DNA of 64,000 nucleotides, from positions 18,758-82,757 of the forward strand of contig JAHBUZ010000011.1 of the NCBI GenBank assembly GCA_019637815.1. The letters are read 5' to 3'. Positions 26,709 through 44,611 of the stretch are shown here, one piece after another. The notes under the pieces are model-generated. The model was not told where the DNA came from. It was given only the letters and a program-made list of their open reading frames with translations, and made no database searches. Each line of letters starts with the position of its first letter. Within the stretch, counting starts at the first letter, position 1. The translations under genes were made by a program, and so were the position numbers. This DNA is from Chloroflexota bacterium (GTDB lineage: Bacteria; Chloroflexota; Limnocylindria; Limnocylindrales; CSP1-4).

Positions 26709-27185
26709 CTACTCGTTGGGCGTGCCGTCGAAGGCCTGCTTCGACGTGATGAACTCCACCCGGATGCCGTCAGGGTCGATCATGTACACCGCGCGGCCAC
26801 CGGTGTTGGGCCCGATGGTCGGCGTGACGGGCGGGTTGACCGATCGGACGCCCTTGGCCACGAGCTCCTCGTACAGGGCGTCACAGTCATCCGTGAAGAA
26901 CGCGAGATGCGCGGTGCCGGGGTTCGCGGTCCGGGTGTCGACGGGCGTCTTCTCGACGTTGCGGTATTCGAGGATCTCCAGGAACACGCCGGTGTCCGCG
27001 GGCATCCGCAGGACCGCCGCGTGGATGTCCGCGTCGGGGTAGCCCACGATGGTCCGGATGTACTCCGCCTGCGGGTTCCACTGGAACACCACCTCGAAGC
27101 CGAGGATGTCGCGATAGAAGGCCAGCGACCGTTCGAGGTCGGCGACCTGGATACCCATGTGATGCGGGCGCGTGATGGTGGGCAT
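26709..27185 (-). CDS. VOC-family protein (glyoxalase/bleomycin-resistance/dioxygenase fold)
   Basis: Start MPTITRPHHMGIQVADLERSLAFYRDILGFEV at 27185 with a GGAGG RBS. The N-terminal 92 codons in the track are out-of-context extension. Confidence 0.7.
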   Translation of the reverse strand: MPTITRPHHMGIQVADLERSLAFYRDILGFEVVFQWNPQAEYIRTIVGYPDADIHAAVLRMPADTGVFLEILEYRNVEKTPVDTRTANPGTAHLAFFTDDCDALYEELVAKGVRSVNPPVTPTIGPNTGGRAVYMIDPDGIRVEFITSKQAFDGTPNE

Positions 27186-27249
27186 CGGGAACCTCCGGAG
27201 TGACGCGACAAGGATGGGAGCGGGAGCGGCGACTGCGGTCGAGGGTGGG

Positions 27250-28398: not shown

Positions 28399-28439
28399 TT
28401 CACTGGCCTGACCAGTCTAACGACCGGCGGCACCGAGGG

Positions 28440-29258: not shown

Positions 29259-29560
29259 CGCGACACCTCCTGGTCGGCCCAGCTGGCGGGGTCGTTGGGA
29301 TGGGCGGCGAGCGGATGCACCGTCGCCACGAGATGCGGGAACATGGGCAGCGAGGCGAGCGCGGTGTGCAGCTCGGTCGCGTCCGCCGCGTGCCAGATGC
29401 CCCAGTTGGCGCGCTGGCCGGGGATACGCCAGAGACGCTTGAGCGTGCCGCTCGCGCCGAGCTCGCGGGCGCGCTGACCCTCCGCGGCGATCAGCCGCTG
29501 CTGCTCCTCGGGCGTGATGCCCGCCGGCCAGGTGAACGTGATGTGCACCAGGAAGTCCAT
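29255..29560 (-). CDS. muconolactone delta-isomerase-like small protein
   Basis: About 101 aa. The sequence MDFLVHITFTW...ATELHTALASLPMFPHLVATVHPLAAHP resembles the CatC/MIase fold. ATG at 29560 with a GAGGAG RBS. It overlaps the SDR start by GTGA. Confidence 0.5.
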   Translation of the reverse strand: MDFLVHITFTWPAGITPEEQQRLIAAEGQRARELGASGTLKRLWRIPGQRANWGIWHAADATELHTALASLPMFPHLVATVHPLAAHPNDPASWADQEVSR

Positions 29561-29585
29561 CGATCGTGCTCCTCGTTCGTCGTCG

Positions 29586-30485
29586 TCAGCCGATGCGACC
29601 GGTCCAGGTCGGCAGGCCCGGCTCGCCCAGGGGGATCCGCCACACCTGGCCACCGTAGGATGCGTCCGATGAGTCGGCCAGGACACCCGCATCGGTCATG
29701 ATCAGGTCGGTGCCCTGGAACACGCAGTTGGTGGGGATGACCCCGGCCTTGATGAAGCGGTCATAGCGACCGTCCGGGTGCAGGACATCGATACCGCCGC
29801 CGTTGACGGTCGTCACATACAGCCGGCCGTCCGCGCCCACGGCCAGGCCATCCGCGACGGGCTGCTCACCGGGCAGTCGCGCGATGTCCTCGATGACGCC
29901 CGTGTCGAGGCGCAGCCTGCGGACCATGCCCGTGTACGACTCGGCCCACACCACGCTGCCGTCCGCCTCGATGGCGATGCCGTTCGGGAAGGTCGGCGGA
30001 TCGAGCTCTGCGAGGAGGCTGCCGGACCCATCGGCCTCCAGCACGAACAGGTACGAGGGCTCGGGGTCCGCGGGTCGGTAGGTGCCCGGATCGGTGAAGT
30101 AGAGCCGACCGTCCGGCCCGAACACCAGGTCGTTGGGGCCATGGAACCGCTTGCCATCCAGCTCCGTGGCGATGATGCGTGCCGGGCCACCTTCCGCCTC
30201 GATGACCTGGATCGAGGGCACCGACATCTCCTCCGCACGCCACGGCCCCACCGTGCCCCCGTTCTGGCACACGTACATCGTGCTGCCATCGCCCCGGACG
30301 CACGAGTTGGGTCCGCCGGCCGTGTACGCGTAGCGACTGACGCCCCGACCGCGCTCCCAGACGGAGACCTGGCTGCGATAGCTCTCCACGAAGCAGATCC
30401 GGCCGTCCGGCAGGACGGTCGGGCCCTCCGCCCAGCCGAGCCCCTCGGCGAGCAGCTCATGGGTGACGGGATCGGGTTCGCTCAT
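29586..30485 (-). CDS. SMP-30/gluconolactonase/LRE-family protein, paralog 2
   Basis: Start MSEPDPVTHELLAEGLGWAEGP at 30485, overlapping the permease stop by ATGA. Beta-propeller SGL repeats. Confidence 0.8.
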   Translation of the reverse strand: MSEPDPVTHELLAEGLGWAEGPTVLPDGRICFVESYRSQVSVWERGRGVSRYAYTAGGPNSCVRGDGSTMYVCQNGGTVGPWRAEEMSVPSIQVIEAEGGPARIIATELDGKRFHGPNDLVFGPDGRLYFTDPGTYRPADPEPSYLFVLEADGSGSLLAELDPPTFPNGIAIEADGSVVWAESYTGMVRRLRLDTGVIEDIARLPGEQPVADGLAVGADGRLYVTTVNGGGIDVLHPDGRYDRFIKAGVIPTNCVFQGTDLIMTDAGVLADSSDASYGGQVWRIPLGEPGLPTWTGRIG

Positions 30486-31315
30486 TTCACGGCTCCTGCG
30501 GTGATGCCACGCACGATGTAGCGCTGCACGAACAGCGAGAACACGAAGATGGGGATGATGGTCACGACGCCCACCGTGGCGGCCACGTTCCAGTCGATGG
30601 GTCGCTGCGCGGAGATGAGCCCGGCGGCGCCGAGCGGGATCGTCTTGAGGCTCTGCGAGTTGACGATGTACATGCCGACCAGGAACTCGTTCCAGATGAA
30701 GATGGCCGCGAAGATCGAGGACACGATGAGCCCCGGCCGCACGAGCGGCAGCATGACCGAGGTGAGGACACGGAAGCGGCTGCACCCGTCCACCATCGCG
30801 GCATCATCCAGCTCCCGGGGGATCTCGTCGAAGAAGCCGATGAGGATCCAGATCACGAGCGGCAGGCTGAACGCCACGTACGGGATCACGAGGCCCGGCA
30901 GGGTGTCGTCGAGGTCCAGGAACCGCATCATCAGCAGGATCGGGATGGCCACGGCCACCGCGGGCATGAAGCGCAGGCTCAGGACCGTGTTCGCCCAGCC
31001 GTCCCGACGTCGGAACGGGATGCGCGAGAAGGCATAGGCGGCCGGGGTCGCGACCAGGAGCGCCACGATGACCGTGAGCGTCGTCACCACGATGGAGTTC
31101 AGGGTGTACCCCAGGAATCCCCGGTCGATGAGCACGTTCCGGTAGTTCGAGACGATCTGGTCGATGTCGAAGTCCAGGGTGGGCGGCACCTGGAGGATCT
31201 CGATGCGCGCCTTGGTGGAGAGCAGCAGGATGACCACGAACGGTGCGAACCCGATGATGCCGATGAGCACGAGGAGCAGGTACGCGAACGCCCGCTCGAT
31301 GCGACGCGTGATCAT
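30482..31315 (-). CDS. CUT1-type ABC sugar permease (MalG/UgpE-like)
   Basis: EAA-loop-type permease with six TM helices. The ATG at 31315 overlaps the upstream permease stop by ATGA. The track ORF's 146 N-terminal codons lie in the neighbour gene's other frame. Confidence 0.8.
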   Translation of the reverse strand: MITRRIERAFAYLLLVLIGIIGFAPFVVILLLSTKARIEILQVPPTLDFDIDQIVSNYRNVLIDRGFLGYTLNSIVVTTLTVIVALLVATPAAYAFSRIPFRRRDGWANTVLSLRFMPAVAVAIPILLMMRFLDLDDTLPGLVIPYVAFSLPLVIWILIGFFDEIPRELDDAAMVDGCSRFRVLTSVMLPLVRPGLIVSSIFAAIFIWNEFLVGMYIVNSQSLKTIPLGAAGLISAQRPIDWNVAATVGVVTIIPIFVFSLFVQRYIVRGITAGAVK

Positions 31316-32220
31316 CGAGCGTCCGCCCGGCGCAGCGCGAGACGTGCCGCGAGGACCATGAACGCGACCGTCGCCACGATGACCATCACGTACGAGATCG
31401 CCGACGCGTAGCCGTAGCGCGTGAAGCTGAAGCCGGTCTCCCAGGCGTAGAAGCTGAGCGTGGTGGTGAGCCGGCCCGGACCGCCGTACGTGAGTCCGAA
31501 CACCACGTCGAACGAGCGGAACGCATCGATGGAGCGGAACACGGCCGCGAACGCGATGGCCGGCGCCAGCAGCGGCAGGGTCACCTGGCGCAGGGTCGCG
31601 ATGCGTCCTGCGCCGTCCACGGCGGACGCCTCGAACACGTCGCGGGGCAGCGCCTGGAGTCGTGCGAACACGATGACCATGATGAATGGCGTCCACTGCC
31701 ACGAATCCACGAGGACCAGCGTGACGAGGGCCAGCTTCGGGTCCGCGGTCCACAGTGGCTTGGGCAGGCCCAGCTCGCCCAGCAGCCAGTTGACCATGCC
31801 CCAGTCAGGGTTGAGCAGCGCCCGCCACATGAGCCCCACCACGACCGGGGTCAGCAGCATCGGCAGGATGAGCACGCCCCGCACGAACCACGATCCGCGC
31901 AGGTGGAGGTCGAAGAACAGCGCGAGCGCCGTGCCCAGGACCACCTGGATGGCGATGGACGCGACGACGAGGATGCCGGTGTTGACCGCGGCCTGCCAGA
32001 ACACCGCGTCGCGGGCGAGCATCGCGTAGTTGTCCAGCCCCACGAACGTGAACGAGCTCGTGGTCGGGCTCCAGTCGAAGAAGCTGATGCCCAGGCTGTA
32101 GACGAGCGGGAAGACGGAGAACAGGACGAGATAGGCCGCGGCCGGCGAGATGAGCAGCAGGATGTCCCGCCGCGTGTGCAGCGGGTGCGCGGTGCGCATC
32201 GGTGGGGTCGTGGTCGTCAC
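31312..32220 (-). CDS. CUT1-type ABC sugar permease (MalF/UgpA-like)
   Basis: Typical MalF-type topology and motifs (ALPRDVFEASAVDGAG). Confidence 0.8.
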   Translation of the reverse strand: MTTTTPPMRTAHPLHTRRDILLLISPAAAYLVLFSVFPLVYSLGISFFDWSPTTSSFTFVGLDNYAMLARDAVFWQAAVNTGILVVASIAIQVVLGTALALFFDLHLRGSWFVRGVLILPMLLTPVVVGLMWRALLNPDWGMVNWLLGELGLPKPLWTADPKLALVTLVLVDSWQWTPFIMVIVFARLQALPRDVFEASAVDGAGRIATLRQVTLPLLAPAIAFAAVFRSIDAFRSFDVVFGLTYGGPGRLTTTLSFYAWETGFSFTRYGYASAISYVMVIVATVAFMVLAARLALRRADAR

Positions 32221-32307
32221 GGTCCTGTCGTGCCGGCTCGGTCGACGTGTGAGGCGGTGGCCGCGTGGGCCACCGCCTCGTGAAGGTCCGCTATCGGTGG
32301 TCCCTGG

Positions 32308-33777
32308 TCACTCGGCCAGGTGGCCACCCGCCTTGAGGATCGTCTCGGCCGCGGCCTGGGCGTTGGCCATCGCCGTCTCGGCGTCCTGGGCACCCGTGAG
32401 CGCGAGGTTGATCTCCCGGGCCACGGCACCCACGACCTCGAAGGCCTCGGGGATGGTCGCGACCTCCAGGATCTGGGCGCTCTCGATGGCACCGACGGCC
32501 GCGGGGATGTACGGCAGCGCCGCGACGATCTCCGGGTCCGAGCCGGTGGAGATGCGGTTCGGGTCCGTCTGGTAGGTCATGACCTGGTACTTCTCGAACT
32601 CCTTCGAGGTGATCTGGGTCAGGAGCAGCCAGGCGCAGTCCTTGTTCTCCTGGGGCAGGTTCTTCGCGATGCCCAGGCCCCAGCCACCGCGGACACCCCG
32701 CGGGTTGCCGTCCTCGGCAGGCATCGGCGCCACCGCGACGGTGTCCTTGACCGGGGAGTCGGGACCGTACAGCGCGCCTGCGATGGTCGCCCACGCCGGC
32801 CACATCGCGACACGACCGGTCATGAACGCGTCCATGGCCTCCGTGAAGCCGTAGCTGGTCACCGCGGCCGGCGAGGACGGCAGCAGGTCGATCATGTTCT
32901 GGAGCGCCGCGACGGCCTCCGGGCTGGTGAGGTTGGTGTTGAGCGTCTGGTCCGCCTTGCTGCCCGTGGTCAGCTGGCCGCCCATGGTGATGAAGCGGCT
33001 GTACCAGTCCACCAGGAAGCCGGAGACATCGTTGGCGCCCACCATGGCGCTGCCGGCGACGTCATCGGTCGTCAGCTGCTGCGCGGTCGCGAGGTACTCC
33101 GCCCAGGTCGTGGGCACGGGCGGCTGGCCCTCACCACCCAGCAGGTCGCTGCGATAGAACAGCAGCACGGAGCCGCTGTGGATGCCCGGGATGAGGTACA
33201 GCTGGTCACCGCCGAACTCACCGGACTCGACATCGAAGTAGCCGGTGTACTCCAGCTGGCCGGCCGGGAAGTCCGCGAAGTCGTAGTCCGCGGGGGTCTT
33301 GGACGCGTCGTTCAGGTACGGCGTCAGCTCCTCGAGGAGCCCGGCGCCCGCCGTCCCCGCCACGTTGAAGCCGATGGTGTGGATGATGTCGAACGCCGAC
33401 TCCGGCGCACGCAGGTTCTGGGCGAGCGACTCGTTCAGCTGGCCGAGCGCCATCGTGGTGAGCTGGATGTCGATGCCGGTCGCGGCCTCGATCTCCGCCT
33501 CCTTGTCGCGCAGGCCGAAGTCGTCCCGCTCGCCATCCACGAGGGCGATACGCACGACCTTGCCGGCGCACGCCATGGGGTCGAACGTGCCACCGGACTG
33601 GGCGCTCACGGTGGCGAACGACAGGCTGGAAGCGGCCACGACGCCGCCGATGCCCAGCGCGCTCAACCGTGCCACGGAGGAACGGCGACGCCGTCCCCCC
33701 GACACCCGATGGCGAGCTGGCGAGCGTCCGGCCCCGCTGGCCGGGGTCACGTGATCCACGACGAGTTCCTCCTCCAT
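32308..33777 (-). CDS. CUT1 extracellular solute-binding protein (family 1)
   Basis: Twin-arginine/Sec-type signal (RRRRSSVARLSALGIGGVVAASSLSFATVSAQS) followed by SBP_bac_1-like domains. Start at ATG 33777 is uncertain. Confidence 0.75.
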   Translation of the reverse strand: MEEELVVDHVTPASGAGRSPARHRVSGGRRRRSSVARLSALGIGGVVAASSLSFATVSAQSGGTFDPMACAGKVVRIALVDGERDDFGLRDKEAEIEAATGIDIQLTTMALGQLNESLAQNLRAPESAFDIIHTIGFNVAGTAGAGLLEELTPYLNDASKTPADYDFADFPAGQLEYTGYFDVESGEFGGDQLYLIPGIHSGSVLLFYRSDLLGGEGQPPVPTTWAEYLATAQQLTTDDVAGSAMVGANDVSGFLVDWYSRFITMGGQLTTGSKADQTLNTNLTSPEAVAALQNMIDLLPSSPAAVTSYGFTEAMDAFMTGRVAMWPAWATIAGALYGPDSPVKDTVAVAPMPAEDGNPRGVRGGWGLGIAKNLPQENKDCAWLLLTQITSKEFEKYQVMTYQTDPNRISTGSDPEIVAALPYIPAAVGAIESAQILEVATIPEAFEVVGAVAREINLALTGAQDAETAMANAQAAAETILKAGGHLAE

Positions 33778-33852
33778 GGGATCGCGCGGCGGTCGAGGGT
33801 GCATCACCCGACCGCGTCGATGGCGCGACCGTACCGCAACGATCGGGCCCAT

Positions 33853-33869
33853 GTCAACAATCGGTTGCG
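33853..33869. promoter_or_regulatory. imperfect palindrome TGTCAACAATCGGTTGC related to the GACAATCGATTGTC motif
   Basis: Arms CAAC/GTTG around an AATCG core, about 80 nt upstream of the SBP start at 33777. It matches 10 of 14 positions with the 40615 palindrome. Confidence 0.25.
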
Positions 33870-33921: not shown

Positions 33922-34431
33922 TCAGGGTGCGCCGATCCTCGCGGGTCGGCGCGCGACCGGGCGATCCACCTCGTCGACGACCGCGACCACGCGCCCGGTC
34001 TGATCGAGGCCGGTGATGGTCCGCGTCACCAGCCCGACGTCCGCCCGGGGGCCCTCGCGGACCACCTCGATGCGCGACTCGGCGACCAGGGTGTCGCCCG
34101 CCACCACGGGACCCGTCAGTCGGATCGATCGCCAGCCCGTGGCCCGCGTCGCGGCGGCCACCGATGGCGGCGGCACGGCGGGCTCGGCGAGCCCGATGAC
34201 GATCGCGGCGGTCAGCGCACCCAGCACGAGCGGCTCCCCGAACGCTCCCTGCGCGGCGGCATGCCGGTCGCCGTGGACGTCGCTCACGTTGTGGGTGACC
34301 CAGGCGAGCCAGACATGCTCCGAGTCATCGAGCGTCCGGCCATGCGCATGACGGATGACCACCCCCGGGACGGCGTCCTCGAACCACCAGCCGGTGTCGG
34401 CGCCCGCGATCACACGAGTCCCTGGCGCCAT
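33922..34431 (-). CDS. MaoC-like (hot-dog fold) dehydratase/hydratase, paralog 2
   Basis: Clear paralog of the MaoC protein at 43103..43669 (shared blocks GWWFEDAV..., VAGDTLVAESRIEVV). Start at ATG 34431 (alternative TTG 34455). Confidence 0.7.
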   Translation of the reverse strand: MAPGTRVIAGADTGWWFEDAVPGVVIRHAHGRTLDDSEHVWLAWVTHNVSDVHGDRHAAAQGAFGEPLVLGALTAAIVIGLAEPAVPPPSVAAATRATGWRSIRLTGPVVAGDTLVAESRIEVVREGPRADVGLVTRTITGLDQTGRVVAVVDEVDRPVARRPARIGAP

Positions 34432-34447
34432 CGCCGACCCGTCCGGG

Positions 34448-35587
34448 TCAGCCAAGGTCCGCGAGGATCCCGACCGGGTCGTCGTGGGGCTGGCTGCGCA
34501 CCCAGTCGATATCGACCATGTGACCGAAGCCCGGCAGCTCGGGGAGTGGCGCCATCAGCCCGCCATCGAGGATCACGGGCTGGGGCAAGGGGTCGTCCAT
34601 CGGGTGGACACCCGTGTCCGGGATACCCCACTCGATGGGTCGGTCGGCGTATCCCAGCGCAGCGAGGACCTGGCTGTGGACGTGCGGGAACATGTGGGGC
34701 GCGAAATCGAGACCCGCAGCGAGCGCCTGGTCGATGACCCGCCGACCGCGCGTCAGACCGCCCATGCAGGTGAGGTCGACCCGCACGACATCCACGGCGC
34801 CGGCCGCGATGAGGGCCTCCGGGAAGTAGCTGCCGCCCTGCTCATCGCCCATCGCGATGGGCACCTCGATGCGGTCGCGGAGCTGTCGCAGGATCCCCGC
34901 GTCCCCGGGCGGGAAGATGTCCTCGAACCAGCCCAGGCCCACGTCCGGGATGGACTCGATGAAGCTGGCCGCCGTCTCCACGTCCTCGTAGACCCACGCG
35001 GCGTCCATGCCCAGCCACGCGTCGGGTGCTGCGGCACGTGCCGCCCGCAGGCGCGCGGCGCTCCGCTCGGCGGCACCACCGATGGGTGCCTTGAAGCGGC
35101 GCCAGCCGGCCGCATACAGCACCGCGGTCTGGGCGCCGGTCTCCTCGGGCCCCATGGTGCCCGGCGGGTAGCCGATGATCGCGGTCGCTGGCATCGGCTC
35201 GTTGTGACCGCCGAGCAGGCCCGCGATGGACAGGTCACGCAGCTTCGCAGCGGCATCCCAGCAGGCGAGGTCCACGATGGACAGGGCACGCAGCCCGATG
35301 CCCGCCGCGTGCGATGCCAGGCTCCGACGCCATGCGACCGTGAACGTCCGCTCCCGGTCATCGATGGTCGTGCCCACGTACAGCGCCGCGATCGTCTTGC
35401 GGATCTGCTCCGCGACCGCGCCGTCACGGGTGAGCGTGTACATCAGGCCATCGACGCCCCGGTCGGTGCGCACCCGCACGAGCGCGAACTCGCGAGAGCG
35501 CATGATCCACTCGCCGAAGATGACCGGCGCGGGGAGCTGGGCCTGGATGGTCATCACGTCCACGGACGTGATGGTCGCGCTGGTCAT
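34448..35587 (-). CDS. enolase-superfamily protein (MR/MLE family; probable sugar-acid dehydratase), paralog 2
   Basis: Start MTSATITSVDVMT at 35587 with a GGAGGA RBS. Co-linear with paralog 1 (FGEWIMRSREF, KAPIG, MGDEQGGSY). Confidence 0.8.
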   Translation of the reverse strand: MTSATITSVDVMTIQAQLPAPVIFGEWIMRSREFALVRVRTDRGVDGLMYTLTRDGAVAEQIRKTIAALYVGTTIDDRERTFTVAWRRSLASHAAGIGLRALSIVDLACWDAAAKLRDLSIAGLLGGHNEPMPATAIIGYPPGTMGPEETGAQTAVLYAAGWRRFKAPIGGAAERSAARLRAARAAAPDAWLGMDAAWVYEDVETAASFIESIPDVGLGWFEDIFPPGDAGILRQLRDRIEVPIAMGDEQGGSYFPEALIAAGAVDVVRVDLTCMGGLTRGRRVIDQALAAGLDFAPHMFPHVHSQVLAALGYADRPIEWGIPDTGVHPMDDPLPQPVILDGGLMAPLPELPGFGHMVDIDWVRSQPHDDPVGILADLG

Positions 35588-35621
35588 GGGTCCTCCGGAG
35601 ACAGCGGGTGACGGAGCGCGC

Positions 35622-36449
35622 TCAGGCGCCCTCGTGGATCTGGGTCGAGCCGGCGCTGCTGGCCCAGGCGCCCTGGGCCAGGAAGCCACCATCGACGGCG
35701 AGATAGCCGCCGGTCATGAAGCTGGAGCGGTCGCTGGCCAGGAACAGCGTGGCCTGCGCGATGTCCTCCGGCAGGCCGAGACGGCCGAGCGGGTGGAAGG
35801 CGCCATAGCGTGCGAGCGTCGCATCGAGGTCGCCGCCCTCCGCGCGCGCCGCGGTCCGGACCATCTCCGAGTCCATGGTGCCCGGACAGATGGCGTTCAC
35901 ACGGATGCCGTCCCGCGCATAGTCGAGGGCCATGTTGCGGGTGAGCGAGAGCACGCCGCCCTTGCTCGCCGCGTACGAGGGGACGCCGGGCATCGACTGG
36001 ACACCCTGGACGCTCGCCATATTGATGACCGAGCCACCCGGTCCCTGCGCCCGGATGTGGGGCAGGGCGTACTTGGACATCAGGAACTGGCCCTTCAGGT
36101 TGACCCCCAGGATGCGATCCCAGACCTCCTCGGGGGTGTCCTCGACGCGGAAGTACCAGTCGACGGGCTGGATGCCCGCGTTGTTGACGAGCACGTCGAG
36201 CCGACCGAAGGCGGTGACCGTCTCGGCCACCATCCGCTGGGCATCCCCGGACGACGAGACATCGCCGATGGTCGCGATGGCTCGCACGCCGCCCGCTGCC
36301 AGCTCTGCCGCCAGGCGCTCCGCGGCGGCCCGGTCCACGTCCGCGATGGCGACCGACGCGCCTTCGCGCGCGAACGCTCGCACGATGCCCTGGCCGATGC
36401 CCAGGGCTCCACCGGTCACCAGGACGGCCCGGCCGTCGAACTCTCCCAT
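35622..36449 (-). CDS. SDR-family oxidoreductase
   Basis: AVLVTGGALGIGQG and YAASK motifs. ATG at 36449 with a GGAGG RBS. Confidence 0.8.
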   Translation of the reverse strand: MGEFDGRAVLVTGGALGIGQGIVRAFAREGASVAIADVDRAAAERLAAELAAGGVRAIATIGDVSSSGDAQRMVAETVTAFGRLDVLVNNAGIQPVDWYFRVEDTPEEVWDRILGVNLKGQFLMSKYALPHIRAQGPGGSVINMASVQGVQSMPGVPSYAASKGGVLSLTRNMALDYARDGIRVNAICPGTMDSEMVRTAARAEGGDLDATLARYGAFHPLGRLGLPEDIAQATLFLASDRSSFMTGGYLAVDGGFLAQGAWASSAGSTQIHEGA

Positions 36450-36469
36450 GTCAGCCTCCGGCGCCATGT

Positions 36470-37411
36470 TCAGTCTCCGATCTCGTCACGGGTGGGGTGG
36501 AAGAGCGGCTTGCCGACGAGCCCGGGGACCCGGAACCGGGTCACGTGCCAGCGCCCGATGTTGGGGGTCAGGATGACGTCCCGGTCGGGACCTGCGAACA
36601 CCACGTTGGTGGGTGCGGCCAGTGCGGTCCCCTCGGGGTCGTGGGCCAGCACCTGGAGCCCCAGGTCCGCACGCCAGCGATACACGACATCGGGCCGGTA
36701 GCACGCGATGACCACCGAGCCGTCCGTGGCGAAGGCGACGCCGTCGGGCACCGTGCCCGGCAGCTCCACCAGGAGCCGCCGTGGCCCCGCCGAGCCATCG
36801 GGCAGGATGTCGAACGCGACCAGCGCCCCGGGCGTGGACTCGAGGACCCATATCTCCTGGCCGTTCGGGTGGACCGCGAGACCGTTCGGGAAGTCCCGGC
36901 TCTCCCGGGTCCAGACGCTGGTGCGCTCCGTGGCAGGGCCGGCACCCGGCCGCACCACGATCACGCTGCCGTCCGGCTGCTTCCAGTGACCGGAGTCGGT
37001 GACATAGAAGCTGCCATCGGGCCCGAACGCGCCCCAGTTGGGTGTCACGAACGGGATGCCGGGTGCGCCGCTGGTCCAGGGAACGGGGTCCCCGCCACCG
37101 GGTGTCCAGCGCATGACCGCGCCGCGCTTGGGGTCACAGGCGTAGACACGCCCCTCCCCGTCCGTGGCGAGGCCCAGGGTCCAGCCGCCGGTCGTGGTCA
37201 CCTCGTGCGCGGTGCCGTCCTCGTCCACCCGGTAGATCTGGCCCTGCTCGCCGCTGACGTAGATGGTGCCGTCGGGCGCGACGCAGATCCCCTCCGCATG
37301 GTCGATACCCGCGGCGATCTGCTCCAGTGCGTCGAGCGCGATGATCGGCTCCATGGCTCCTCCCACCCGCCACCCGGGCTCGGCTGCGCGGTCCACGACG
37401 TGGCGACTCAT
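36470..37411 (-). CDS. SMP-30/gluconolactonase/LRE-family protein, paralog 3
   Basis: SGL beta-propeller repeats. The ATG at 37411 overlaps the permease stop by ATGA (alternative start MEPIIALD at 37354). Confidence 0.8.
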   Translation of the reverse strand: MSRHVVDRAAEPGWRVGGAMEPIIALDALEQIAAGIDHAEGICVAPDGTIYVSGEQGQIYRVDEDGTAHEVTTTGGWTLGLATDGEGRVYACDPKRGAVMRWTPGGGDPVPWTSGAPGIPFVTPNWGAFGPDGSFYVTDSGHWKQPDGSVIVVRPGAGPATERTSVWTRESRDFPNGLAVHPNGQEIWVLESTPGALVAFDILPDGSAGPRRLLVELPGTVPDGVAFATDGSVVIACYRPDVVYRWRADLGLQVLAHDPEGTALAAPTNVVFAGPDRDVILTPNIGRWHVTRFRVPGLVGKPLFHPTRDEIGD

Positions 37412-38241
37412 TGCTTGACCGCCCCCTCCGCCACGCCACGCTCGAACTGGCGGTGGAGCACCAGGTACAGGATGAACACAGGCACGGCCGCCATCAACAC
37501 CGCAGCGGCCACCAACTCGTGGGGCGTGCTGTACTGACCGATGAACTGGGCGATGCCGACCGGCAGGGTATACGTGCCCGCATCACGGAGCAGCACCAGC
37601 GCCAGGAAGTAGTCGTTCCAGCAGAACAGGAACGTCAGGATCGCGACCGTCGCGATCGGTGCCTTCGCGAGCGGCACGACGACGCCCAGGAGGATCCAGC
37701 GCTCCGAGGCCCCATCGATGCGGGCCGCCTCCAGGAGCTCCCGTGGGATCCCCGCGAAGAAGCTCCGCAGGATGAGGATGGACAGCGGCAGGCCGAACGC
37801 GACATAGACCAGGGACAGGCCGACGTGCGTGTCGTAGAGGCCCATCGTCCGGATCTCCACGAACAGCGGGATGATGACCGCCGCGGGCGGGATCATGAGC
37901 CCCAGGAGGATGAGCAGGAACAGCACCTCCGACCCCCGGAACCGGAGCCGGGCGAAGCCGTAGGCGGCGAGGACGCTCAGGGTGACCACGACGGCGACGG
38001 AGAGGCCCGTCACGACGATGCTGTTGAGGAACAGGCGCGCGAGACCGAACTGGCCCCATGCATCGGAGAAGTTCTCCGGCCGGAACGTGCCCGGGATGAC
38101 CGCCCGTGAGTAGACGTCCGCGCCGGTCCGGAGGGCGAGGCCCACGATCCACAGGATGGGCGCCATCGCCACCATCGCCGAAGCCAGCAGGAACGCGGAG
38201 ACACCGACCCGCCACGCCGGGTGCGTATAGCGGTCGATCAT
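37408..38241 (-). CDS. CUT1-type ABC sugar permease (MalG-like)
   Basis: EAA loop (RIDGASERW) with six TM helices. Confidence 0.8.
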   Translation of the reverse strand: MIDRYTHPAWRVGVSAFLLASAMVAMAPILWIVGLALRTGADVYSRAVIPGTFRPENFSDAWGQFGLARLFLNSIVVTGLSVAVVVTLSVLAAYGFARLRFRGSEVLFLLILLGLMIPPAAVIIPLFVEIRTMGLYDTHVGLSLVYVAFGLPLSILILRSFFAGIPRELLEAARIDGASERWILLGVVVPLAKAPIATVAILTFLFCWNDYFLALVLLRDAGTYTLPVGIAQFIGQYSTPHELVAAAVLMAAVPVFILYLVLHRQFERGVAEGAVKQ

Positions 38242-38283
38242 GGGTGGATCTCCGGCGGTTCGGCACGGCCACCCACGCGATGG

Positions 38284-39210
38284 TCATTCATGGAGACGCG
38301 ACCCCCAGCGGATGCGCAGCACGGCCGCGCCCACCGACAACGCCACGATGACCAGCGCGATGGCCGATGCGTAGCCCATGTCGCTGAACTTGAAGGCCTG
38401 CTCGTACATGTAGGTCGCCAGCACCTCCGTGCTCCGGTTGGGTCCGCCGCGGGTCATGACGTACACCAGGTCGAACACGCGCAGACCACCGATGACGTTG
38501 AGCAGGATTGCGGTGCCGATGACCGGATACAGACCGGGCACGACCACGTGGCGGATGCTGGCACGGGCGCCCGCCCCGTCGATGGATGCCGCCTCGAGCT
38601 GGTCGCGTGGCAGGTTCTGGAGACCGGCGTAATAGAGCAGCATGTTGTAGCCCGTGAACTGCCACACCGTGGCCACGATCACGGACGTCAGCGCGAGGTC
38701 AGGGTCACCCAGGAACAGCGTCGGTCGGGCCGTGGGGCTCACGAGCGAGATGAGCTGGTTGACGGCCCCGAACGCATCCAGGATGCGGGTCCACATGAGC
38801 GCCACGATCACGGGTGACAGGAGGACCGGCAGGAACAGCACGGACTTCACCAGGCCGCTGCCACGCACCCGCGACGCGATGAGCAGCGCGTAGAGGAAGC
38901 CCGTGATGTTCAGGAGCACCGTGGTCGCCACGGTGAACAGGATCGTGTGTGTGAACGAGCGCCAGAACACCGGGTCCGCGGCGGCCTTCTGGAACTTGGC
39001 GAGGCCCACGAAGGTCCAGTCGCCGATGCGGAAGCCCGCCCACTCCAGGAACGCGATGCCCGCTACCGCGAACACCGGCACCATCAGGAACAGGCAGAAG
39101 ATGATGACGCTGGGCAGCACGAAGGCGAGCCCGAGCCGGCCGGGTGTGACCGACCGACGAGGACTCGCGATCGACGCGGTCACGGATGGTCGCGGTGATG
39201 CGGCTGCCAT
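38284..39210 (-). CDS. CUT1-type ABC sugar permease (MalF-like)
   Basis: MalF-type topology (NLPRDQLEAASIDGAG). Confidence 0.8.
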   Translation of the reverse strand: MAAASPRPSVTASIASPRRSVTPGRLGLAFVLPSVIIFCLFLMVPVFAVAGIAFLEWAGFRIGDWTFVGLAKFQKAAADPVFWRSFTHTILFTVATTVLLNITGFLYALLIASRVRGSGLVKSVLFLPVLLSPVIVALMWTRILDAFGAVNQLISLVSPTARPTLFLGDPDLALTSVIVATVWQFTGYNMLLYYAGLQNLPRDQLEAASIDGAGARASIRHVVVPGLYPVIGTAILLNVIGGLRVFDLVYVMTRGGPNRSTEVLATYMYEQAFKFSDMGYASAIALVIVALSVGAAVLRIRWGSRLHE

Positions 39211-39243
39211 CCGGATACCGGTGTGGTGGTCGGTGGCGGATGC

Positions 39244-40539
39244 CTACTGCGCGCCGGCCGAGACCATCGCCTCGATGACCGTGCTGCCGGGCTGTCCGTC
39301 CATGACGCCCTGCATCGCGTTCAGCAGCTCCGCGTAGACCTGCGTCGTGTAGATGACGCGGCTGTTGGCGGTGGCCTGCGCGGTCACCATGTTGTTGTAC
39401 AGCTCGCTCTTGTCCGCGGGCACCGGGAAGTCCCAGGACGGGATGAAGTCGTTGGCGACGAGCGCGGCGCCGCCGCCATCGTCCACGAGGTAGCGCAGGA
39501 ACTCGATCGCCTCCTCCTGGTGGGCGCAGTCAGCCGTGACCACGAACATCTCGGCGATGCCGCCCGTGGCCCGGTTGTCGAGCGTGCTGCCGTCCGGCTT
39601 GGGGAACGGGAACAGACTCCACTCGAAGGCATCGCCCACCTTGTCCGCGACGCCCGCCGTGACGAAGTTGCCGACCGGGTACATCATCCCGGCGGCTCCG
39701 CTTGCGAACAGGTCGAGGTTGCCCACGAACGCGTCCATGGAGTTGGCGCCGGGCGCGAAGATGCCACTCGCGACCATGGCGGCCACGTTGTCCGCCGCGG
39801 CAGCGAAGGCCGGGTCATCCCAGCCGACCTCGCCGGCATCCGCCTGCGCGAGCTTGCTGTTGGTGCCGTCCGTGTAGGCCACCTGGGCGAAGAACAGGTC
39901 GCCCGCGGACCACCGGTCCCGGGTGCCCATGGCGATGCCGAACAGGCCCTGCTCACCCAGCGCATCCACGGCGGCCTGGAGCTCACCCTGTGTCTGGGGG
40001 ACCTCCAGGCCCAGCTCGTCGAACCGGGTCTTGTTGTAGGCGATCTGGAGCGTGTTCACGTCCAGGGGGATCGCCCAGACCTCGCCGCCGATGCTCACCG
40101 CGTCCACGATGGGCTCGAAGAACGCCGGGAAACCGGTGGTGATCGCCTGGGTCAACGGGATCAGCTCGCCACTGTTCACGAAGTCCCGGAACTCGCCGGC
40201 CCACGGGATCTGGGCGATGCAGGGTGGCTCATCCGCCGCGATCGCGGCTCGGAACCGCGTCAGGTAGTCGGTGAAGCTCAGGTAGATGACGCCGCATGCG
40301 TCACCACAGTTCGACTGGCCACGCTTCACCGTGACGCCCGGATGGTCCGCCTCGAAACGCACGATGGCGTCCTCGTGGACCAGGGGGTACGCGCCTTCGT
40401 TGTTCCAGGACCACATCTCCAGCTCGATGGGGTCCTGCGCGTTCGCCGCGGGGGTCACGGCCAAGGTCCCCACCAGGACCGTGCCCATGACGAATGCCGA
40501 CCGCCGCCGGGTCGTACTGCCGTGTGTCCGCCTTGCCAT
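39244..40539 (-). CDS. CUT1 extracellular solute-binding protein (family 1)
   Basis: Start MARRTHGSTTRRRSAFVMGTVLVGTLAVTPAANAQD at 40539 with a GAGGAGG RBS 7 nt upstream. Signal peptide plus an SBP_bac_1-like domain. Confidence 0.8.
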   Translation of the reverse strand: MARRTHGSTTRRRSAFVMGTVLVGTLAVTPAANAQDPIELEMWSWNNEGAYPLVHEDAIVRFEADHPGVTVKRGQSNCGDACGVIYLSFTDYLTRFRAAIAADEPPCIAQIPWAGEFRDFVNSGELIPLTQAITTGFPAFFEPIVDAVSIGGEVWAIPLDVNTLQIAYNKTRFDELGLEVPQTQGELQAAVDALGEQGLFGIAMGTRDRWSAGDLFFAQVAYTDGTNSKLAQADAGEVGWDDPAFAAAADNVAAMVASGIFAPGANSMDAFVGNLDLFASGAAGMMYPVGNFVTAGVADKVGDAFEWSLFPFPKPDGSTLDNRATGGIAEMFVVTADCAHQEEAIEFLRYLVDDGGGAALVANDFIPSWDFPVPADKSELYNNMVTAQATANSRVIYTTQVYAELLNAMQGVMDGQPGSTVIEAMVSAGAQ

Positions 40540-40614
40540 CCGGCGTCCTCCTCGGTGCCCGTCCGCGGCGCGCCAAGGGCCGCCGTCAGCGGGTTCGGGC
40601 AGGAGGTTGATCCC

Positions 40615-40632
40615 TTGACAATCGATTGTCAA
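40615..40632. promoter_or_regulatory. perfect 18-bp palindrome TTGACAATCGATTGTCAA (candidate LacI-type operator)
   Basis: Perfect inverted repeat with a central CG, 76 nt upstream of the CUT1 SBP start (minus strand) and about 177 nt upstream of the plus-strand lipoyl gene. The same core occurs at 8150..8163. Confidence 0.4.
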
Positions 40633-40808
40633 TATGGGATCGTTCGCCCGGGACGGCATCGACGGCTCGGCGAGCGGGAACGATCCCGGCCTGGCAGCCG
40701 CATGCCCGATCCGGGTCGGAGGCGACGCCGGTATCATCCGGGAACGCGTGCTCCGATGGTGCGACACGCGCCCGCGACGACCCCACCCGAGGCCCACAGG
40801 AGGTTCCC

Positions 40809-41054
40809 ATGGCACGTATCCCGATCGAGATGCCCCGCATGGGCTACGACATGGAGACCGGCACCATCGCCGCCTGGGTGAAGCAGGTCGGTGACAGCGT
40901 GTCGCGCGGCGATGTGCTCGCGGAGATCGAGACCGAGAAGTCCACCGTGGAGATGGAGGCGCTCGCCGCCGGCACCCTCGTGGAGCAGACGCTGGCCCCC
41001 GGCCAGGAGGTCCCGGTGGGCACGGTCATCGGCTATCTCGACGACGGCCAGTAG
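40809..41054 (+). CDS. stand-alone lipoyl-attachment domain protein (81 aa)
   Basis: Sequence MARIPIEMPRMGYDMETGTIAAWVKQVGDSVSRGDVLAEIETEKSTVEMEA is a canonical lipoyl domain with the lipoyl-lysine in ETEKS. It ends at a TAG stop. A CAGGAGG RBS precedes the ATG. Confidence 0.75.
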   Translation: MARIPIEMPRMGYDMETGTIAAWVKQVGDSVSRGDVLAEIETEKSTVEMEALAAGTLVEQTLAPGQEVPVGTVIGYLDDGQ

Positions 41055-41070
41055 GATCCACGAACCGACG

Positions 41071-41808
41071 ATGGCGGACGGACGACACCCGGTCACCTTC
41101 TCCCGGATGCGCGAGGCGATCGCGCGACGGATGGTCCAGAGCAAGACCCAGGCACCCCACTTCTATGTCTCCCGCGATCTGGCGATGGACGCGGCGCTCG
41201 ATGCGCTCGCGACCCTCAACGCTGACCGACCGAAGGAGCAGCGGGCGAGCGTCACCGCGCTGCTGTTGCGGGCCATGGCCTCGACGCTCGCCGCGGCGCC
41301 CGCGTTCAACGCGGTCTGGGAGGGCGACACGCTGGTGCGCGTGGATGCCATCAACCTGGGGGTCGCGATCGACCTCGGCGAGGGCGGCCTGATCGCACCC
41401 GCGCTGCTCGATTGCGGCAGCAAGTCGGTGGACCAGCTGGGCAGCGAGCTGCGGGACCTCGCGGAGCGGGCTCGCGCGGGCAAGCTGCGCGCCCCGGAGA
41501 TCGCCGAGGGCACGTTCACGCTCACCAACCTGGGCATGTTCGGGGTGACCAGCTTCACGGCCATCATCACGCCGCCCCAGGTGGCCACGCTCGCCACGGG
41601 CGCCACGGAGGCACGCCCGGTGGTCCGGGATGGCGCCGTGGTGGTCCGCTGGATGATGACCGCGACGCTCTCCGCCGACCATCGCGCGGTGGACGGCGCC
41701 GGGGCTGCGCGGCTGCTCGCCGATCTCCAGGCACGCCTCGATGACGCGGCCGGCTGGGTGGGCGCGACCTCGGACGCCTTCGCCGCGGATGCGGCGGGGC
41801 CGACGTGA
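41071..41808 (+). CDS. stand-alone 2-oxoacid dehydrogenase acyltransferase (E2) catalytic-domain protein
   Basis: Start MADGRHPVTFSRMREAIARRM, 16 nt after the lipoyl gene stop. E2 catalytic core with the active-site DHRAVDG. No peripheral subunit-binding domain is encoded between or within the two genes. Confidence 0.75.
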   Translation: MADGRHPVTFSRMREAIARRMVQSKTQAPHFYVSRDLAMDAALDALATLNADRPKEQRASVTALLLRAMASTLAAAPAFNAVWEGDTLVRVDAINLGVAIDLGEGGLIAPALLDCGSKSVDQLGSELRDLAERARAGKLRAPEIAEGTFTLTNLGMFGVTSFTAIITPPQVATLATGATEARPVVRDGAVVVRWMMTATLSADHRAVDGAGAARLLADLQARLDDAAGWVGATSDAFAADAAGPT

Positions 41809-43106
41809 GCAGCGCGGACGGACGCCCGCTGCCGGACCTCGACGCCGCGGTCGCGCTCGCTGACGCACGCAACCGGGCCCTGCGCGAGGAGCTGGCACCC
41901 CGCCAGGCACGTCTGCCGCTCCGCTACTGGCGACAGCAGGCGCATTTCACGACGCCTGCGGAGGCCGCCATGGCCCGCAAGGCCGTGGAGGGCGGCACCG
42001 CGCCCATGGCGCGCATCCTCGAGCGCTTCGAGGTCGGTCCGGCGATGCTCGCCGACCGGCTCGGCGTGGGCGTGGACGCGATCGAGCGGCTGCTGGCGGC
42101 TCCCCGGCGCGCGCCCATGGTGATGCTCGATGCGGAGGACGCCCTCGCGCTCACGGACGCGGCTGCCGCCCAGGCGCGTCTGGATGCCGCGGATATCCTC
42201 GCGACGGCCGACTGGAGTGGCGGCGGACCACCCAGCCTGCGCTTCTACCGGCCACCGGGCCTGGCGCTGGGCTCCACGGCCCGCGAGCTGTACGGGCTCC
42301 TGTGGCGGCTCGTGGAGGCATCTCCGGACGGTCGGATCCCGCTCGACGGCATCGTGTTCCCCAAGATCGAGCATCCCGAGGAGGTGGACCTGGTCCACGG
42401 CATGCTCACGGAGGCCGAGCGCTCGCTGGGGCTGCCGGTCGGCGGCATCCGGGTCGCGTACCTGGTGGAGTCGGGATGGGCGGCGGCCCAGCTGGCGGAC
42501 CTCGCGCAGCGCGCCGCCGATCGGCTGTGTGCCCTCGTCTTCGGGCTCGCGGACTACTCCGCGGACGTCGGCCTGCCGTCCATCGCCAACGAGCATCCGC
42601 TCGCGGACTGGGCCCGCGCCACGATCGTGGACGTCGCCGGCGCGGTGGGCGTGCCCGCCATCGATGGCATGACCCTCGACTACCCGGTCGCCGACCCGGC
42701 ACTCGATGGTCCGGCCAATCGTGTCCGGTTCCTCGATCGGATGCAGCTCGTCTACCGCGATGCCGTCCGGGCCCGGGACTTCGGCATGCTCGGCAAGTGG
42801 GTGGGTCATCCGGCCCAGCTGTTCGCGGTGCTGCTGGCGTACGAGACGGGCTTCACGGACGCTGCGCTGGAGGCGGAGGCGGCCAAGCTGGCCGCGTACG
42901 ACACCGCGGTCCACCAGGAGGGCAGGGGCGCCACGATGATCGCGGGTGTCATGTCCGACCGGGCGACCGACCGCCACGCGCGGGTGGTCCTCCGCCAGGC
43001 GACGGCGCTGGGGCGGTTCGACCCGGCCCGGGCGCTCGCCCTCGGGGTCATCGATGCCGATGAGCTGGCCGACGCACAGGACGCATGGCGAGGTGGACCC
43101 GCATGA
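41805..43106 (+). CDS. HpcH/HpaI-aldolase/CitE-family acyl-CoA lyase (malyl-CoA/citramalyl-CoA-lyase-like)
   Basis: GTG start overlaps the E2 stop by GTGA. Carries the CitE-family MLDAEDA motif and is about 430 aa long. Confidence 0.8.
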   Translation: MSSADGRPLPDLDAAVALADARNRALREELAPRQARLPLRYWRQQAHFTTPAEAAMARKAVEGGTAPMARILERFEVGPAMLADRLGVGVDAIERLLAAPRRAPMVMLDAEDALALTDAAAAQARLDAADILATADWSGGGPPSLRFYRPPGLALGSTARELYGLLWRLVEASPDGRIPLDGIVFPKIEHPEEVDLVHGMLTEAERSLGLPVGGIRVAYLVESGWAAAQLADLAQRAADRLCALVFGLADYSADVGLPSIANEHPLADWARATIVDVAGAVGVPAIDGMTLDYPVADPALDGPANRVRFLDRMQLVYRDAVRARDFGMLGKWVGHPAQLFAVLLAYETGFTDAALEAEAAKLAAYDTAVHQEGRGATMIAGVMSDRATDRHARVVLRQATALGRFDPARALALGVIDADELADAQDAWRGGPA

Positions 43107-43669
43107 CCGACGAGCCCGGGGCGGACGTCCCGACCACCCAGGACGGCGCCGCGGCATCGGACGGTCCCACCGCCCCGGATGCCCCGGCGACCCGGCGTGT
43201 GGTCGGCTGGGAGGGCCGCTTCCTCGATGACTTCCAGGTCGGCGACGTGTACCGCCACTCGCACGGCCGGACCATCACCCAGACGGACAACACCTGGTTC
43301 ACGCTGCTCACCAACAACACCCACGACGTCCACTACAACGTGGACTACGCATCCCGGACCGAGTTCGGCAAGCCGCTCGTGGTGTCCACCCTGACACTGG
43401 CCATCGTCACGGGTCTGTCCGTGGAGGACGTCAGCCGCAACGCGGTCGCCAACCTCGGCTGGGAGCAGGTCCGCTGCCCGGCACCCGTATTCGCCGGTGA
43501 CACCCTGTATGCCGAGACGGAGGTCCTGGACGTCCGACCGTCGCGGTCCCGGCCCGGCCAGGGCATCGTGCGGGTGCGCACCCGAGGGCTCAACCAGGAC
43601 GGCACGGTCGTCATGGAGTTCGAGCGGAGCGTCCTCGTCTACAGCCGGGCGTCCCGGCCCGGCGCCTGA
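43103..43669 (+). CDS. MaoC-like enoyl-CoA hydratase/dehydratase (hot-dog fold), paralog 1
   Basis: ATG overlaps the CitE stop by ATGA. MaoC-dehydratase fold blocks (AGDTLYAETEVLDVRPS). Confidence 0.8.
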   Translation: MTDEPGADVPTTQDGAAASDGPTAPDAPATRRVVGWEGRFLDDFQVGDVYRHSHGRTITQTDNTWFTLLTNNTHDVHYNVDYASRTEFGKPLVVSTLTLAIVTGLSVEDVSRNAVANLGWEQVRCPAPVFAGDTLYAETEVLDVRPSRSRPGQGIVRVRTRGLNQDGTVVMEFERSVLVYSRASRPGA

Positions 43670-43678
43670 CCTCCGGCG

Positions 43679-44611
43679 ATGGGCGGGCGCATCGTCGTCG
43701 GCGGTGAGAGCCTCGTCGATCGCATCCGGACCGTCGACGGGAGCGTCCGGGACGTGCCCGGGGGCGGGCCCTACAACACCGCTCGGGCCCTTGGTCGCCT
43801 GGGGCTCGGGACGGCGTTCCTGGGCTGCATCTCGACCGATGCGCTGGGTGGGACGCTGCTCACGGGTCTCATCGATGACGGCGTGATCACGGACCTGGTG
43901 ACCCGGACGGATGCGCCGACCACGCTCGCCCTCGCCGACCTCGATGCGTCGGGCACGGCGCGCTACACCTTCCTCGTGGACGGCACGGCGGCACCCCGGG
44001 TGACCCGGGAGGACGCCCTCCGGGCGCTGGATGGCGAGGTCGCGGCGATCCACGTGGGGACCCTGGGGCTCGTGTTCCAGCCCGTGTCGGACAGCCTCGA
44101 GGCGCTCGTCGCGGCGGCACCCCCGGACACGCTCGTGATGCTCGACCCGAACGCCCGACCGTCGGCGACCCCGGATCTCGCCGCGTGGCGCGCACGCGTC
44201 GGCCGACTCGCTCGCCGGGCGGACATCATCCGCGCGAGCACCGACGACCTCACCACCCTCGACGACCGCCGGGACCCCGTCGCCGTCGCTCGCGGCCTCG
44301 CCATGGATGGAGCGCTGGTGCTCCTCACGGACGGCGGGCGACCCATCAGGCTCGTGTCGCGGGCGTTCCCGCCGACGGAGCTGCCACTCCTGGGGGGCCC
44401 CGTCGTGGACACGGTCGGGGCGGGGGATTCGTTCGGCGCCGCGTTCCTCGGCTGGCTGCTGGACCACGGCCTCGATCGTGGCGCCCTCGAGGACCCGGGC
44501 CCGGTCCACGGCGCGGCTCGCGTGGCGCTCGCTGCCGCCGCGATCACCTGTTCCCGACGCGGCGCCGACCCGCCGACCCGCGCCGAGCTCGACGCGGCGT
44601 GGCACGCCTGA
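43679..44611 (+). CDS. PfkB-family carbohydrate kinase (fructokinase/2-keto-3-deoxygluconate-kinase-like)
   Basis: Ribokinase-superfamily motifs including the C-terminal DTVGAGDSF anion-hole. Confidence 0.8.
   Translation: MGGRIVVGGESLVDRIRTVDGSVRDVPGGGPYNTARALGRLGLGTAFLGCISTDALGGTLLTGLIDDGVITDLVTRTDAPTTLALADLDASGTARYTFLVDGTAAPRVTREDALRALDGEVAAIHVGTLGLVFQPVSDSLEALVAAAPPDTLVMLDPNARPSATPDLAAWRARVGRLARRADIIRASTDDLTTLDDRRDPVAVARGLAMDGALVLLTDGGRPIRLVSRAFPPTELPLLGGPVVDTVGAGDSFGAAFLGWLLDHGLDRGALEDPGPVHGAARVALAAAAITCSRRGADPPTRAELDAAWHA

Follow-up and report, generated by a model that had tools for sequence, protein, structure and literature searches.

In the Chloroflexota contig considered here, a perfect 18-bp palindrome lies ahead of an operon that begins with the gene of a CUT1 solute-binding protein (SBP), and the question it raises is whether it is one of a set of operators read by a common regulator. 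The original prediction, made on the same stretch of 64,000 nucleotides (referred to below as the window), placed three copies of the palindrome before minus-strand operons and attributed them to one of three LacI paralogs. The sequence facts, their conservation in related genomes, the co-localisation of the motif with lacI-1 orthologs and its promoter-like layout are directly observed, and the motif itself is likely to be the operator of a local LacI-family repressor, LacI-1, in a Limnocylindrales-like Chloroflexota.

Three sites in the window

Because the window is 71% G+C, its genes were called by the G+C bias of third codon positions and named with Pfam, and distances were taken from the most plausible start codons. 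The three sites (Table 1) are all intergenic and stand ahead of minus-strand units, at a spacing from the first start codon of 73-75 nt, where 74-80 nt had been claimed.

Site 1 is found before the CUT1 SBP operon exactly as predicted, in the 270 bp that separate the minus-strand SBP-A gene from the divergent lipoyl-protein operon on the plus strand. It is 75 nt from the ATG at 40539, a start with a GGAGGA ribosome-binding site. The 18-mer is the second-longest perfect palindrome of the window and, at 67% A+T, far richer in A+T than any of the others. A search of the plus-strand side of the site-1 region in the window found neither a second operator nor a conserved promoter. The same side carries a 10-bp inverted repeat, GGGATCGTTC/GAACGATCCC, with 32 nt between its arms (40636-40687), which is not conserved in relatives. 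The window's longest perfect palindrome, 26 bp and G+C-rich (GCGATCGCGGCAGCTGCCGCGATCGC, 21551-21576), lies between two minus-strand genes, one for a binding protein and one for an SDR, and could be an intergenic hairpin.

Site 2 occupies the 110-bp gap between an SDR gene (ending at 8187) and the CoA-transferase gene (starting at 8076), 73 nt from the GTG at 8076. In Markov-1 random sequence a window would contain 0.003 copies of the 14-mer with at most one mismatch; two are observed, the reference included, so that site 2 is a genuine second copy and this part of the prediction holds. No site is found in the 137 nt that separate the CoA-transferase gene of the window from lacI-1.

Site 3 was correctly located before the second CUT1 SBP gene, 75 nt from the ATG at 33777, which is also the start in an independent gene call (protein P0121, 489 aa, 100% identical). 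Its claimed likeness to the 14-mer did not survive: the four mismatches in 14 positions are at chance level (20 observed against 15.6 expected), scans of the window with the 14-mer at up to 3-4 mismatches do not separate signal from noise and leave site 3 unsupported, and a position weight matrix built from the strong sites gives it less than 10 bits. The site is singled out solely by a core defined from relatives. The motif has the consensus TTGACAATCGATTGTC, with the constrained core ACAA-N-CG-N-TTGT, and a scan of the window with the core ACAANCGNTTGT yields two perfect matches, sites 1 and 2, and one match with a single mismatch, site 3, where 0.015 perfect and 0.31 one-mismatch matches are expected per 64-kb window. 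Read in the direction of transcription, site 3 is CGCAACCGATTGTT, with a perfect promoter-proximal half and a decayed distal half.

Table 1. Sites, predicted promoters and genes discussed in the text (window positions unless a related locus is named)
Feature	Position	Strand	Basis	Remarks
Site 1	40615-40632			Perfect 18-bp palindrome TTGACAATCGATTGTCAA; 14-bp core 40617-40630
Site 2	8148-8165			TAGACAATCGCTTGTCGA; 14-bp core GACAATCGCTTGTC at 8150-8163
Site 3	33853-33869			TGTCAACAATCGGTTGC; diverged operator AACAATCGGTTGCG at 33856-33869
Predicted SBP-A promoter	40604-40632	minus		-35 TTGACA (40632-40627), 17-nt spacer, -10-like CAACCT (40609-40604)
Predicted CoA-transferase/LacI-1 promoter	8137-8165	minus		-35 TCGACA (8165-8160), 17-nt spacer, -10 TAGGAT (8142-8137)
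Predicted SBP-B promoter	33828-33857	minus		-35 TTGACA (33857-33852), 18-nt spacer, -10 TACGGT (33833-33828)
LacI-1	5654-6670	minus		338 aa; LacI helix-turn-helix and periplasmic-binding-protein-like effector domain
LacI-2	15827 to ~16840	minus	tblastn
LacI-3	~24623-25762	plus	tblastn
Family III CoA-transferase	6808-8076	minus	Pfam CoA_transf_3, 3.6e-109	First gene of the site-2 unit
Cluster A	33922-40539	minus	Pfam	Proposed target of site 1
SBP-A	39244-40539	minus		CUT1 solute-binding protein
Cluster B	25746-33777	minus	Pfam	Proposed target of site 3; paralog of cluster A; predicted operon, downstream extent approximate
SBP-B	32308-33777	minus		CUT1 solute-binding protein
Divergent operon	40809-44611	plus	Pfam and NCBIfam	Possible regulon member
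Element (T/G)(G/C)AAGCGTTTCCAGCC	L012 4900-4945; L050 11920-11965; L051 9190-9215; L049 3475-3500

Conservation of the motif and layout of the promoters

When species-representative genomes were scanned with SBP-A, five close loci came up, with 76-88% protein identity; all are from Chloroflexota MAGs labelled Limnocylindrales or Chloroflexota and have a conserved gene order. The window itself reads as a Limnocylindrales-like Chloroflexota genome. In all five relatives TTGACAATCG(A/T)TTGTC is present upstream of the orthologous SBP-A gene as the only conserved block, while the flanks diverge. The alignment contains a run of 16 columns, 15 of them invariant, at a mean identity of 59% overall, and the block is a classical phylogenetic footprint. 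Symmetry over all 18 bp of site 1 is confined to the window genome, the relatives having CC or CT in place of AA, and outside the 14-bp core only the upstream TT is kept among them. The GATCCC...GGGATC flanks of site 1 (40606-40641) likewise belong to this genome only. Where the window has a single site shared by SBP-A and the divergent operon, three relatives possess an extra operator copy on the divergent-operon side (L003 9784-9797, L006 983-996 and L001 9325-9338).

The motif is also found in the promoter of the unit that contains the LacI-1 ortholog at 11 loci, the window and 10 others. It lies directly upstream of lacI-1 in L012, L013, L014 and L049, and upstream of the CoA-transferase-lacI-1 pair in the window, L015, L019, L022, L024, L046 and L050. 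The neighbour upstream of these sites varies among the loci (SDR, lyase, DUF4432, SGL, glyoxalase or acyltransferase), which indicates that the motif travels with lacI-1, a signature of autoregulation. Six loci, L020, L021, L023, L025, L028 and L051, were left out of this count, the locus being incomplete or the operon start lying off the contig. The 135-nt gap before lacI-1 in L016-L018, which are closely related and nearly identical in arrangement, holds no site; there lacI-1 is the last gene of an SBP/permease/lactonase/SDR operon.

Over 333 kb of related DNA the core has 18 perfect and 6 one-mismatch matches, all in promoter regions and none in coding sequence, an enrichment to be read with the origin of the sample, which consists of loci fetched for carrying these genes and is thus no unbiased genome-wide test. 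The promoters that hold the 24 matches are those of SBP-A (or its divergent partner), SBP-B, the CoA-transferase-lacI-1 pair and lacI-1. The central CG, to which the original prediction had drawn attention as typical of LacI operators, is present in every one of these sites.

At the position orthologous to site 3, AACAAACGTTTGTT is found in L003 and L046, and GAAAAACG(T/A)TTGTT in L001, L047 and L048. The former is a good palindrome, of which the distal arm has decayed in the window. Position +/-2 is T, A or G among undoubted sites of the LacI-1 type, as in GACAAACGTTTGTC upstream of the CoA-transferase-lacI-1 pair of L050, so the SBP-B sites fall within the range of the LacI-1 motif. Site 3 is probably a weaker, half-decayed variant that LacI-1 would bind at lower affinity. 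Given its divergence and its different promoter geometry, binding by the same protein as at sites 1 and 2 is less certain.

The predicted promoters are arranged around the operator in a regular manner. The six orthologous SBP-A promoters all have TTGACA, a spacer of 17-18 nt and CA(A/C)(C/G)CT. At site 2 the operator covers the -35 hexamer and the spacer, a layout repeated in all 11 related promoters. Taken together, the promoters of the SBP-A, CoA-transferase-lacI-1 and lacI-1 classes (17 of 17) have an operator that starts with a -35-like hexamer, followed after 17-18 nt by nAnnnT; the hexamer is mostly TTGACA, with TCGACA at site 2 and in L019, and TTGCCA and GTGACA at one locus each. The SBP-B promoters have TTGAC(A/T), 18 nt and (T/C)AnnnT (6/6), and here the palindrome is placed upstream of TTGACA, with a 2-nt overlap and a centre at about -42 (6/6). 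Overall, the operator overlaps or abuts a -35-like hexamer in 23 of 23 promoters. A generic sigma-70 scan of the site regions of the window called a promoter at site 2 (TCGACA/17 nt/TAGGAT, with 0.0 expected in shuffles) and none at sites 1 and 3. We infer from this layout that the left arm of the operator would double as the -35 element and the right arm would fill the spacer, the former explaining why, of the positions flanking the 14-bp core, the upstream TT alone is conserved.

LacI-1 as the predicted regulator and the rival readings

LacI-1 shows the full LacI architecture (PF00356, PF13377 and PF00532) of the LacI/PurR family, with a helix-turn-helix, a leucine hinge helix and a type I periplasmic-binding-protein-like domain. 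It matches the structures of PurR, CcpA and LacI end to end, that of PurR with an E value of 5e-46 over residues 2-334. Its orthologs are many, with 63-95% identity, and the recognition helix and hinge (YRPNALARGLRTRRTD, ALARGL) are conserved in 108 of them. When compared with the named NCBIfam equivalogs (RbsR, PurR, GalS, CcpA, GntR and others), LacI-1 scored above the curated cut-off of none; the best was RbsR, with 199 bits against a cut-off of 382, and PurR gave 185 against 501. LacI-1 thus represents an unnamed orthologous group.

The proposed mechanism is that a LacI-1 dimer binds the CG-centred palindrome. In the SBP-A and CoA-transferase/lacI-1 promoters the operator extends from the -35 hexamer through the spacer, with its centre at about -27, and bound LacI-1 would therefore exclude RNA polymerase by promoter occlusion. 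As lacI-1 lies within one of the controlled units, the regulator would be autoregulated. Release would be brought about by a small-molecule effector, which is probably either the imported compound (a sugar, sugar acid or lactone) or one of its catabolic intermediates, and would co-induce CUT1 ABC uptake, the enzymes of oxidation, lactone opening and dehydration (SDR, SGL lactonase and the enolase-superfamily enzyme) and the CoA-transferase step. Binding, its repressive sign, the identity of the regulator and its effector are what we infer here. The attribution to one of the three LacI paralogs in the original prediction is supported by the footprint and by the motif in the lacI-1 promoters, and it can be narrowed to LacI-1 as the most likely regulator, since different palindromes adjoin the other paralogs; site 3 is the less certain member.

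The closest solved full-length relative of LacI-1 is PurR of E. coli. The PurR operator, of the ACGCAAACGTTTGCGT type, is an even palindrome of 16 bp; leucines of the hinge helix insert into its central CG, and PurR is autoregulated. LacI-1 keeps an ARGL hinge corresponding to that of PurR, while the arms of the operators differ, GACAAT in the LacI-1 motif as opposed to GCAAAC. PurR needs a corepressor, whereas most members of the LacI family are released by an inducer. The operators of CcpA (cre) and of the RbsR type (TGNAANCGNTTNCA) have the AA-N-CG-N-TT centre in common with the LacI-1 motif but differ in the outer positions, which are TGNAA/TTNCA in them and ACAA/TTGT here; there is no sign for LacI-1 of a global role as in CcpA/cre.

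Operators of the LacI family are even palindromes, inverted repeats of 16-22 bp; 1173 of 1303 motifs have a central CG, more than 75% of the sites lie between -140 and -30 from the start codon, and 72% of the regulators are autoregulated (Ravcheev et al. 2014, PMC4052901). In line with this, site 1 and the conserved block are palindromes of 18 bp and of 14-16 bp, CG is central in 24/24 sites, the window sites lie 73-75 nt upstream, three ortholog alignments show a footprint, and a site is present in the promoter of the lacI-1 unit. The same logic governs the local sugar-catabolic LacI regulons of RegPrecise, which include KojR and Caur_3448 of Chloroflexus (PMC4052901): few operons, an even CG palindrome 30-140 nt upstream, autoregulation, and an ABC transporter together with catabolic enzymes. 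The present regulon differs from them in belonging to an uncultured Limnocylindrales-like lineage and in combining sugar-acid-type enzymes with a CoA-transferase, hydratase and lyase set.

The only serious rival to LacI-1 comes from its own paralogs. According to tblastn, the window encodes three LacI proteins, all full-length, and the recognition helix and hinge of LacI-1 differ from those of LacI-2 and LacI-3 at a few positions. The sites could then be LacI-type operators bound by LacI-2 or LacI-3, or cross-bound by several paralogs, especially at site 3, a reading that is unlikely but deserves weight. The hinge YRPNALARGLR is common to the three paralogs and their recognition helices are similar; lacI-3 abuts the end of cluster B; the site-3 orthologs AACAAACGTTTGTT resemble ACCAAACGTTTGAC, which is associated with LacI-3; and a CAAACGTTTG core is common to the SBP-B orthologous sites and the lacI-3 region. 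However, the GACAAT-CG-ATTGTC form follows the lacI-1 orthologs at the 11 loci and is absent from the lacI-2 and lacI-3 promoter regions of the window, and the variation at position +/-2 brings the SBP-B sites within reach of LacI-1.

The other LacI paralogs adjoin different CG-centred palindromes, ACCAAACGTTTGAC, TGACAACGTTGTCT and TGAAAGCGCTTTCA, the first beside lacI-3 in the window and the last beside another LacI gene in L047. TGACAACGTTGTCT adjoins a LacI-3-like gene (L012 744-757 and L014 389-402) and shares the GACAA/TTGTC arms of the LacI-1 operator, but each arm stands one base closer to the central CG; half-site spacing is a possible means of telling the paralogs apart. Two CG-centred motifs of the window are probably LacI-3 operators: TGACCAAACGTTTGACCA (24576-24593), between lacI-3 and a divergently oriented ABC ATPase gene, and TGAACGAACGTTTGACCA (22605-22622), which overlaps the first codons of the ribose-type binding-protein gene 21595-22650. 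Weak CG-centred pseudo-palindromes are found in the intergenic regions upstream of the ribose-type SBP gene 14672-15670 (GTCAAACGATTTCC, 15695-15708) and of the SGL-lacI-2 unit (GGAAATCGTGTGTC, 17784-17797), and are statistically unsupported candidates for LacI-2 sites.

In several relatives another conserved element, (T/G)(G/C)AAGCGTTTCCAGCC, occupies the interval between the lipoyl-protein and MIase genes; in some cases ATGATAGCG follows it, in some it is tandemly duplicated, and it looks like a LacI operator of the TGGAAACGCTT type. If that resemblance holds, part of the same gene set would be under another LacI paralog in those genomes. A distant homolog of SBP-A (51%) is encoded in a Gemmatimonas MAG (L005), divergently to a set of MaoC, CoA-transferase, LacI and MR_MLE genes, and there the motif (G/A)TCAA(T/A)CG(A/T)TTGA(C/T) occurs at 3-4 places (6006-6023, 9352-9369 and ~9828-9845). 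This locus was considered as a CoA-transferase-lacI-1 ortholog beside an SBP gene and rejected: the LacI protein encoded there has 45% identity to LacI-2 and 40% to LacI-1, and the motif of the locus reads TCAATCGATTGA. The same regulatory architecture thus appears in another phylum, with a LacI protein that is not orthologous to LacI-1, and L005 serves here as a parallel only and does not count in favour of LacI-1.

A GntR/FCD regulator gene (~3834-4532, plus strand) adjoins lacI-1 in the window, L012, L014, L049 and JGI contig 3300048101, and its product, not a LacI protein, might bind the palindrome. This is very improbable, as the motif is even and centred on CG, as LacI operators are, and lacks the central GT...AC arrangement of typical FadR-type GntR sites; it is also present where a GntR gene is not nearby (L015, L019, L022, L024 and L050).

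TTGACA is the canonical -35 hexamer and is followed in every case by a -10-like hexamer at 17-18 nt, so that the conserved block could be a strong promoter only, with no dedicated regulator and with incidental palindromy. The spacer of a promoter is normally unconstrained in sequence, whereas the spacer ATCGATTGTC is invariant and mirrors the left arm. Moreover, the extra copies on the divergent-operon side in L003, L006 and L001 do not have TTGACA, and the SBP-B palindrome is upstream of the -35 hexamer and not within the core promoter, which leaves the promoter-only reading less probable still.

Least probable of all is an RNA or DNA hairpin acting as terminator, attenuator or processing site: palindromes can fold, the 121-nt region has a z-score of -2.8 and the flanks of site 1 are complementary in the window, but that complementarity is absent in relatives, the A+T-rich stem has no loop and no T-run, no terminator is called there, the variants ATCGTT and AGCGAT break perfect pairing while keeping the half-site pattern, and the predicted transcription start is downstream of the palindrome. 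A restriction or methylation site, suggested by the ATCGAT centre, which matches the ClaI recognition sequence, was dismissed because of the functional-looking variants ATCGTT, AGCGAT and AACGTT.

Genes under the sites and their meaning

Cluster A comprises the genes of the CUT1 SBP, two permeases, an SGL-type lactonase, an SDR, an enolase-superfamily (MR_MLE) enzyme and a MaoC-like hydratase, in an order that is the same in L001-L004 and L046. Cluster B encodes its own CUT1 SBP with two permeases, an SGL lactonase, an MIase-like protein, an SDR, an MR_MLE enzyme, a glyoxalase-fold protein and a PTE-family hydrolase, and its order is retained in L003, L046, L047 and the JGI contig. The two clusters are tandem paralogs. 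The CoA-transferase, which is below all NCBIfam equivalog cut-offs, is co-oriented with lacI-1, and this pairing is kept in L015, L019-L024, L028, L050 and L051.

The original prediction regarded the units as otherwise separate, and this view does not quite hold. Cluster A, cluster B, the CoA-transferase gene and lacI-1 are contiguous in the JGI contig (by gene order only) and in L046, so that what appear as separate units in the window are parts of a single conserved supercluster, interrupted there by ~17 kb in which LacI-2, LacI-3 and a pair of ribose-type ABC systems are encoded.

The divergent operon on the other side of site 1 is possibly part of the regulon. It encodes an 81-aa lipoyl-domain protein, an E2-like acyltransferase, an HpcH/CitE-like lyase, a RipB/Ich-like hydratase and a PfkB kinase. 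The lipoyl-domain ORF (40809-41054) overlaps, in another frame, the ORF 40891-41808, which contains only the catalytic domain of a 2-oxoacid dehydrogenase E2. L003 and L006 have the lipoyl ORF by itself, with the HpcH-like lyase directly after it, so that a free-standing lipoyl protein seems to be real and not a frameshift artefact.

The enzyme set suggests an oxidative catabolism of a sugar or sugar acid feeding a CoA-dependent hydratase and lyase branch; no substrate is named, because all NCBIfam matches are below the cut-offs. Enzymes of the lactone and sugar-acid type are unusually concentrated in the 64 kb of the window, with three PTE-family (lactonase-like) genes (4567-5637, 17854-18930 and 25746-26699), four for SGL-type lactonases and at least seven for SDRs.

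A more far-reaching reading, offered tentatively, is that these genes would constitute an undescribed catabolic route of Limnocylindrales, in which a sugar-like compound is oxidised, delactonised and dehydrated before entering a RipABC-like branch, with LacI-1 as a dual regulator. The branch may consist of the CoA-transferase, the enoyl-CoA hydratase and the C-C lyase together with the free-standing lipoyl-domain protein. LacI-1 might act as a repressor where its site is inside the core promoter and possibly as an activator at SBP-B, where the site is centred at about -42.

As far as it can be read from sequence, the finding is one of known LacI-family biology and involves no new mechanism; what is new is a predicted autoregulated LacI-1 regulon in a little-studied lineage. 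The motif string is absent from the literature searched, the search returning only an unrelated paper on a plant retrotransposon, and a comparative-genomics paper on Limnocylindria from 2026 makes no mention of LacI regulators.

The predicted regulon is a concrete one for this Limnocylindrales-like Chloroflexota lineage, which to our knowledge is represented by metagenomes only; we know of no transcription factor site described for these uncultured but widespread bacteria. It links a family III CoA-transferase, and possibly the operon of the lyase, hydratase and lipoyl protein, to two transport and catabolic clusters of the sugar-acid type, a link that offers a clue to the pathway and its substrate. 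In addition, it provides 23 promoter-like sequences (TTGACA, 17-18 nt, nAnnnT) from a phylum whose promoters are poorly documented.
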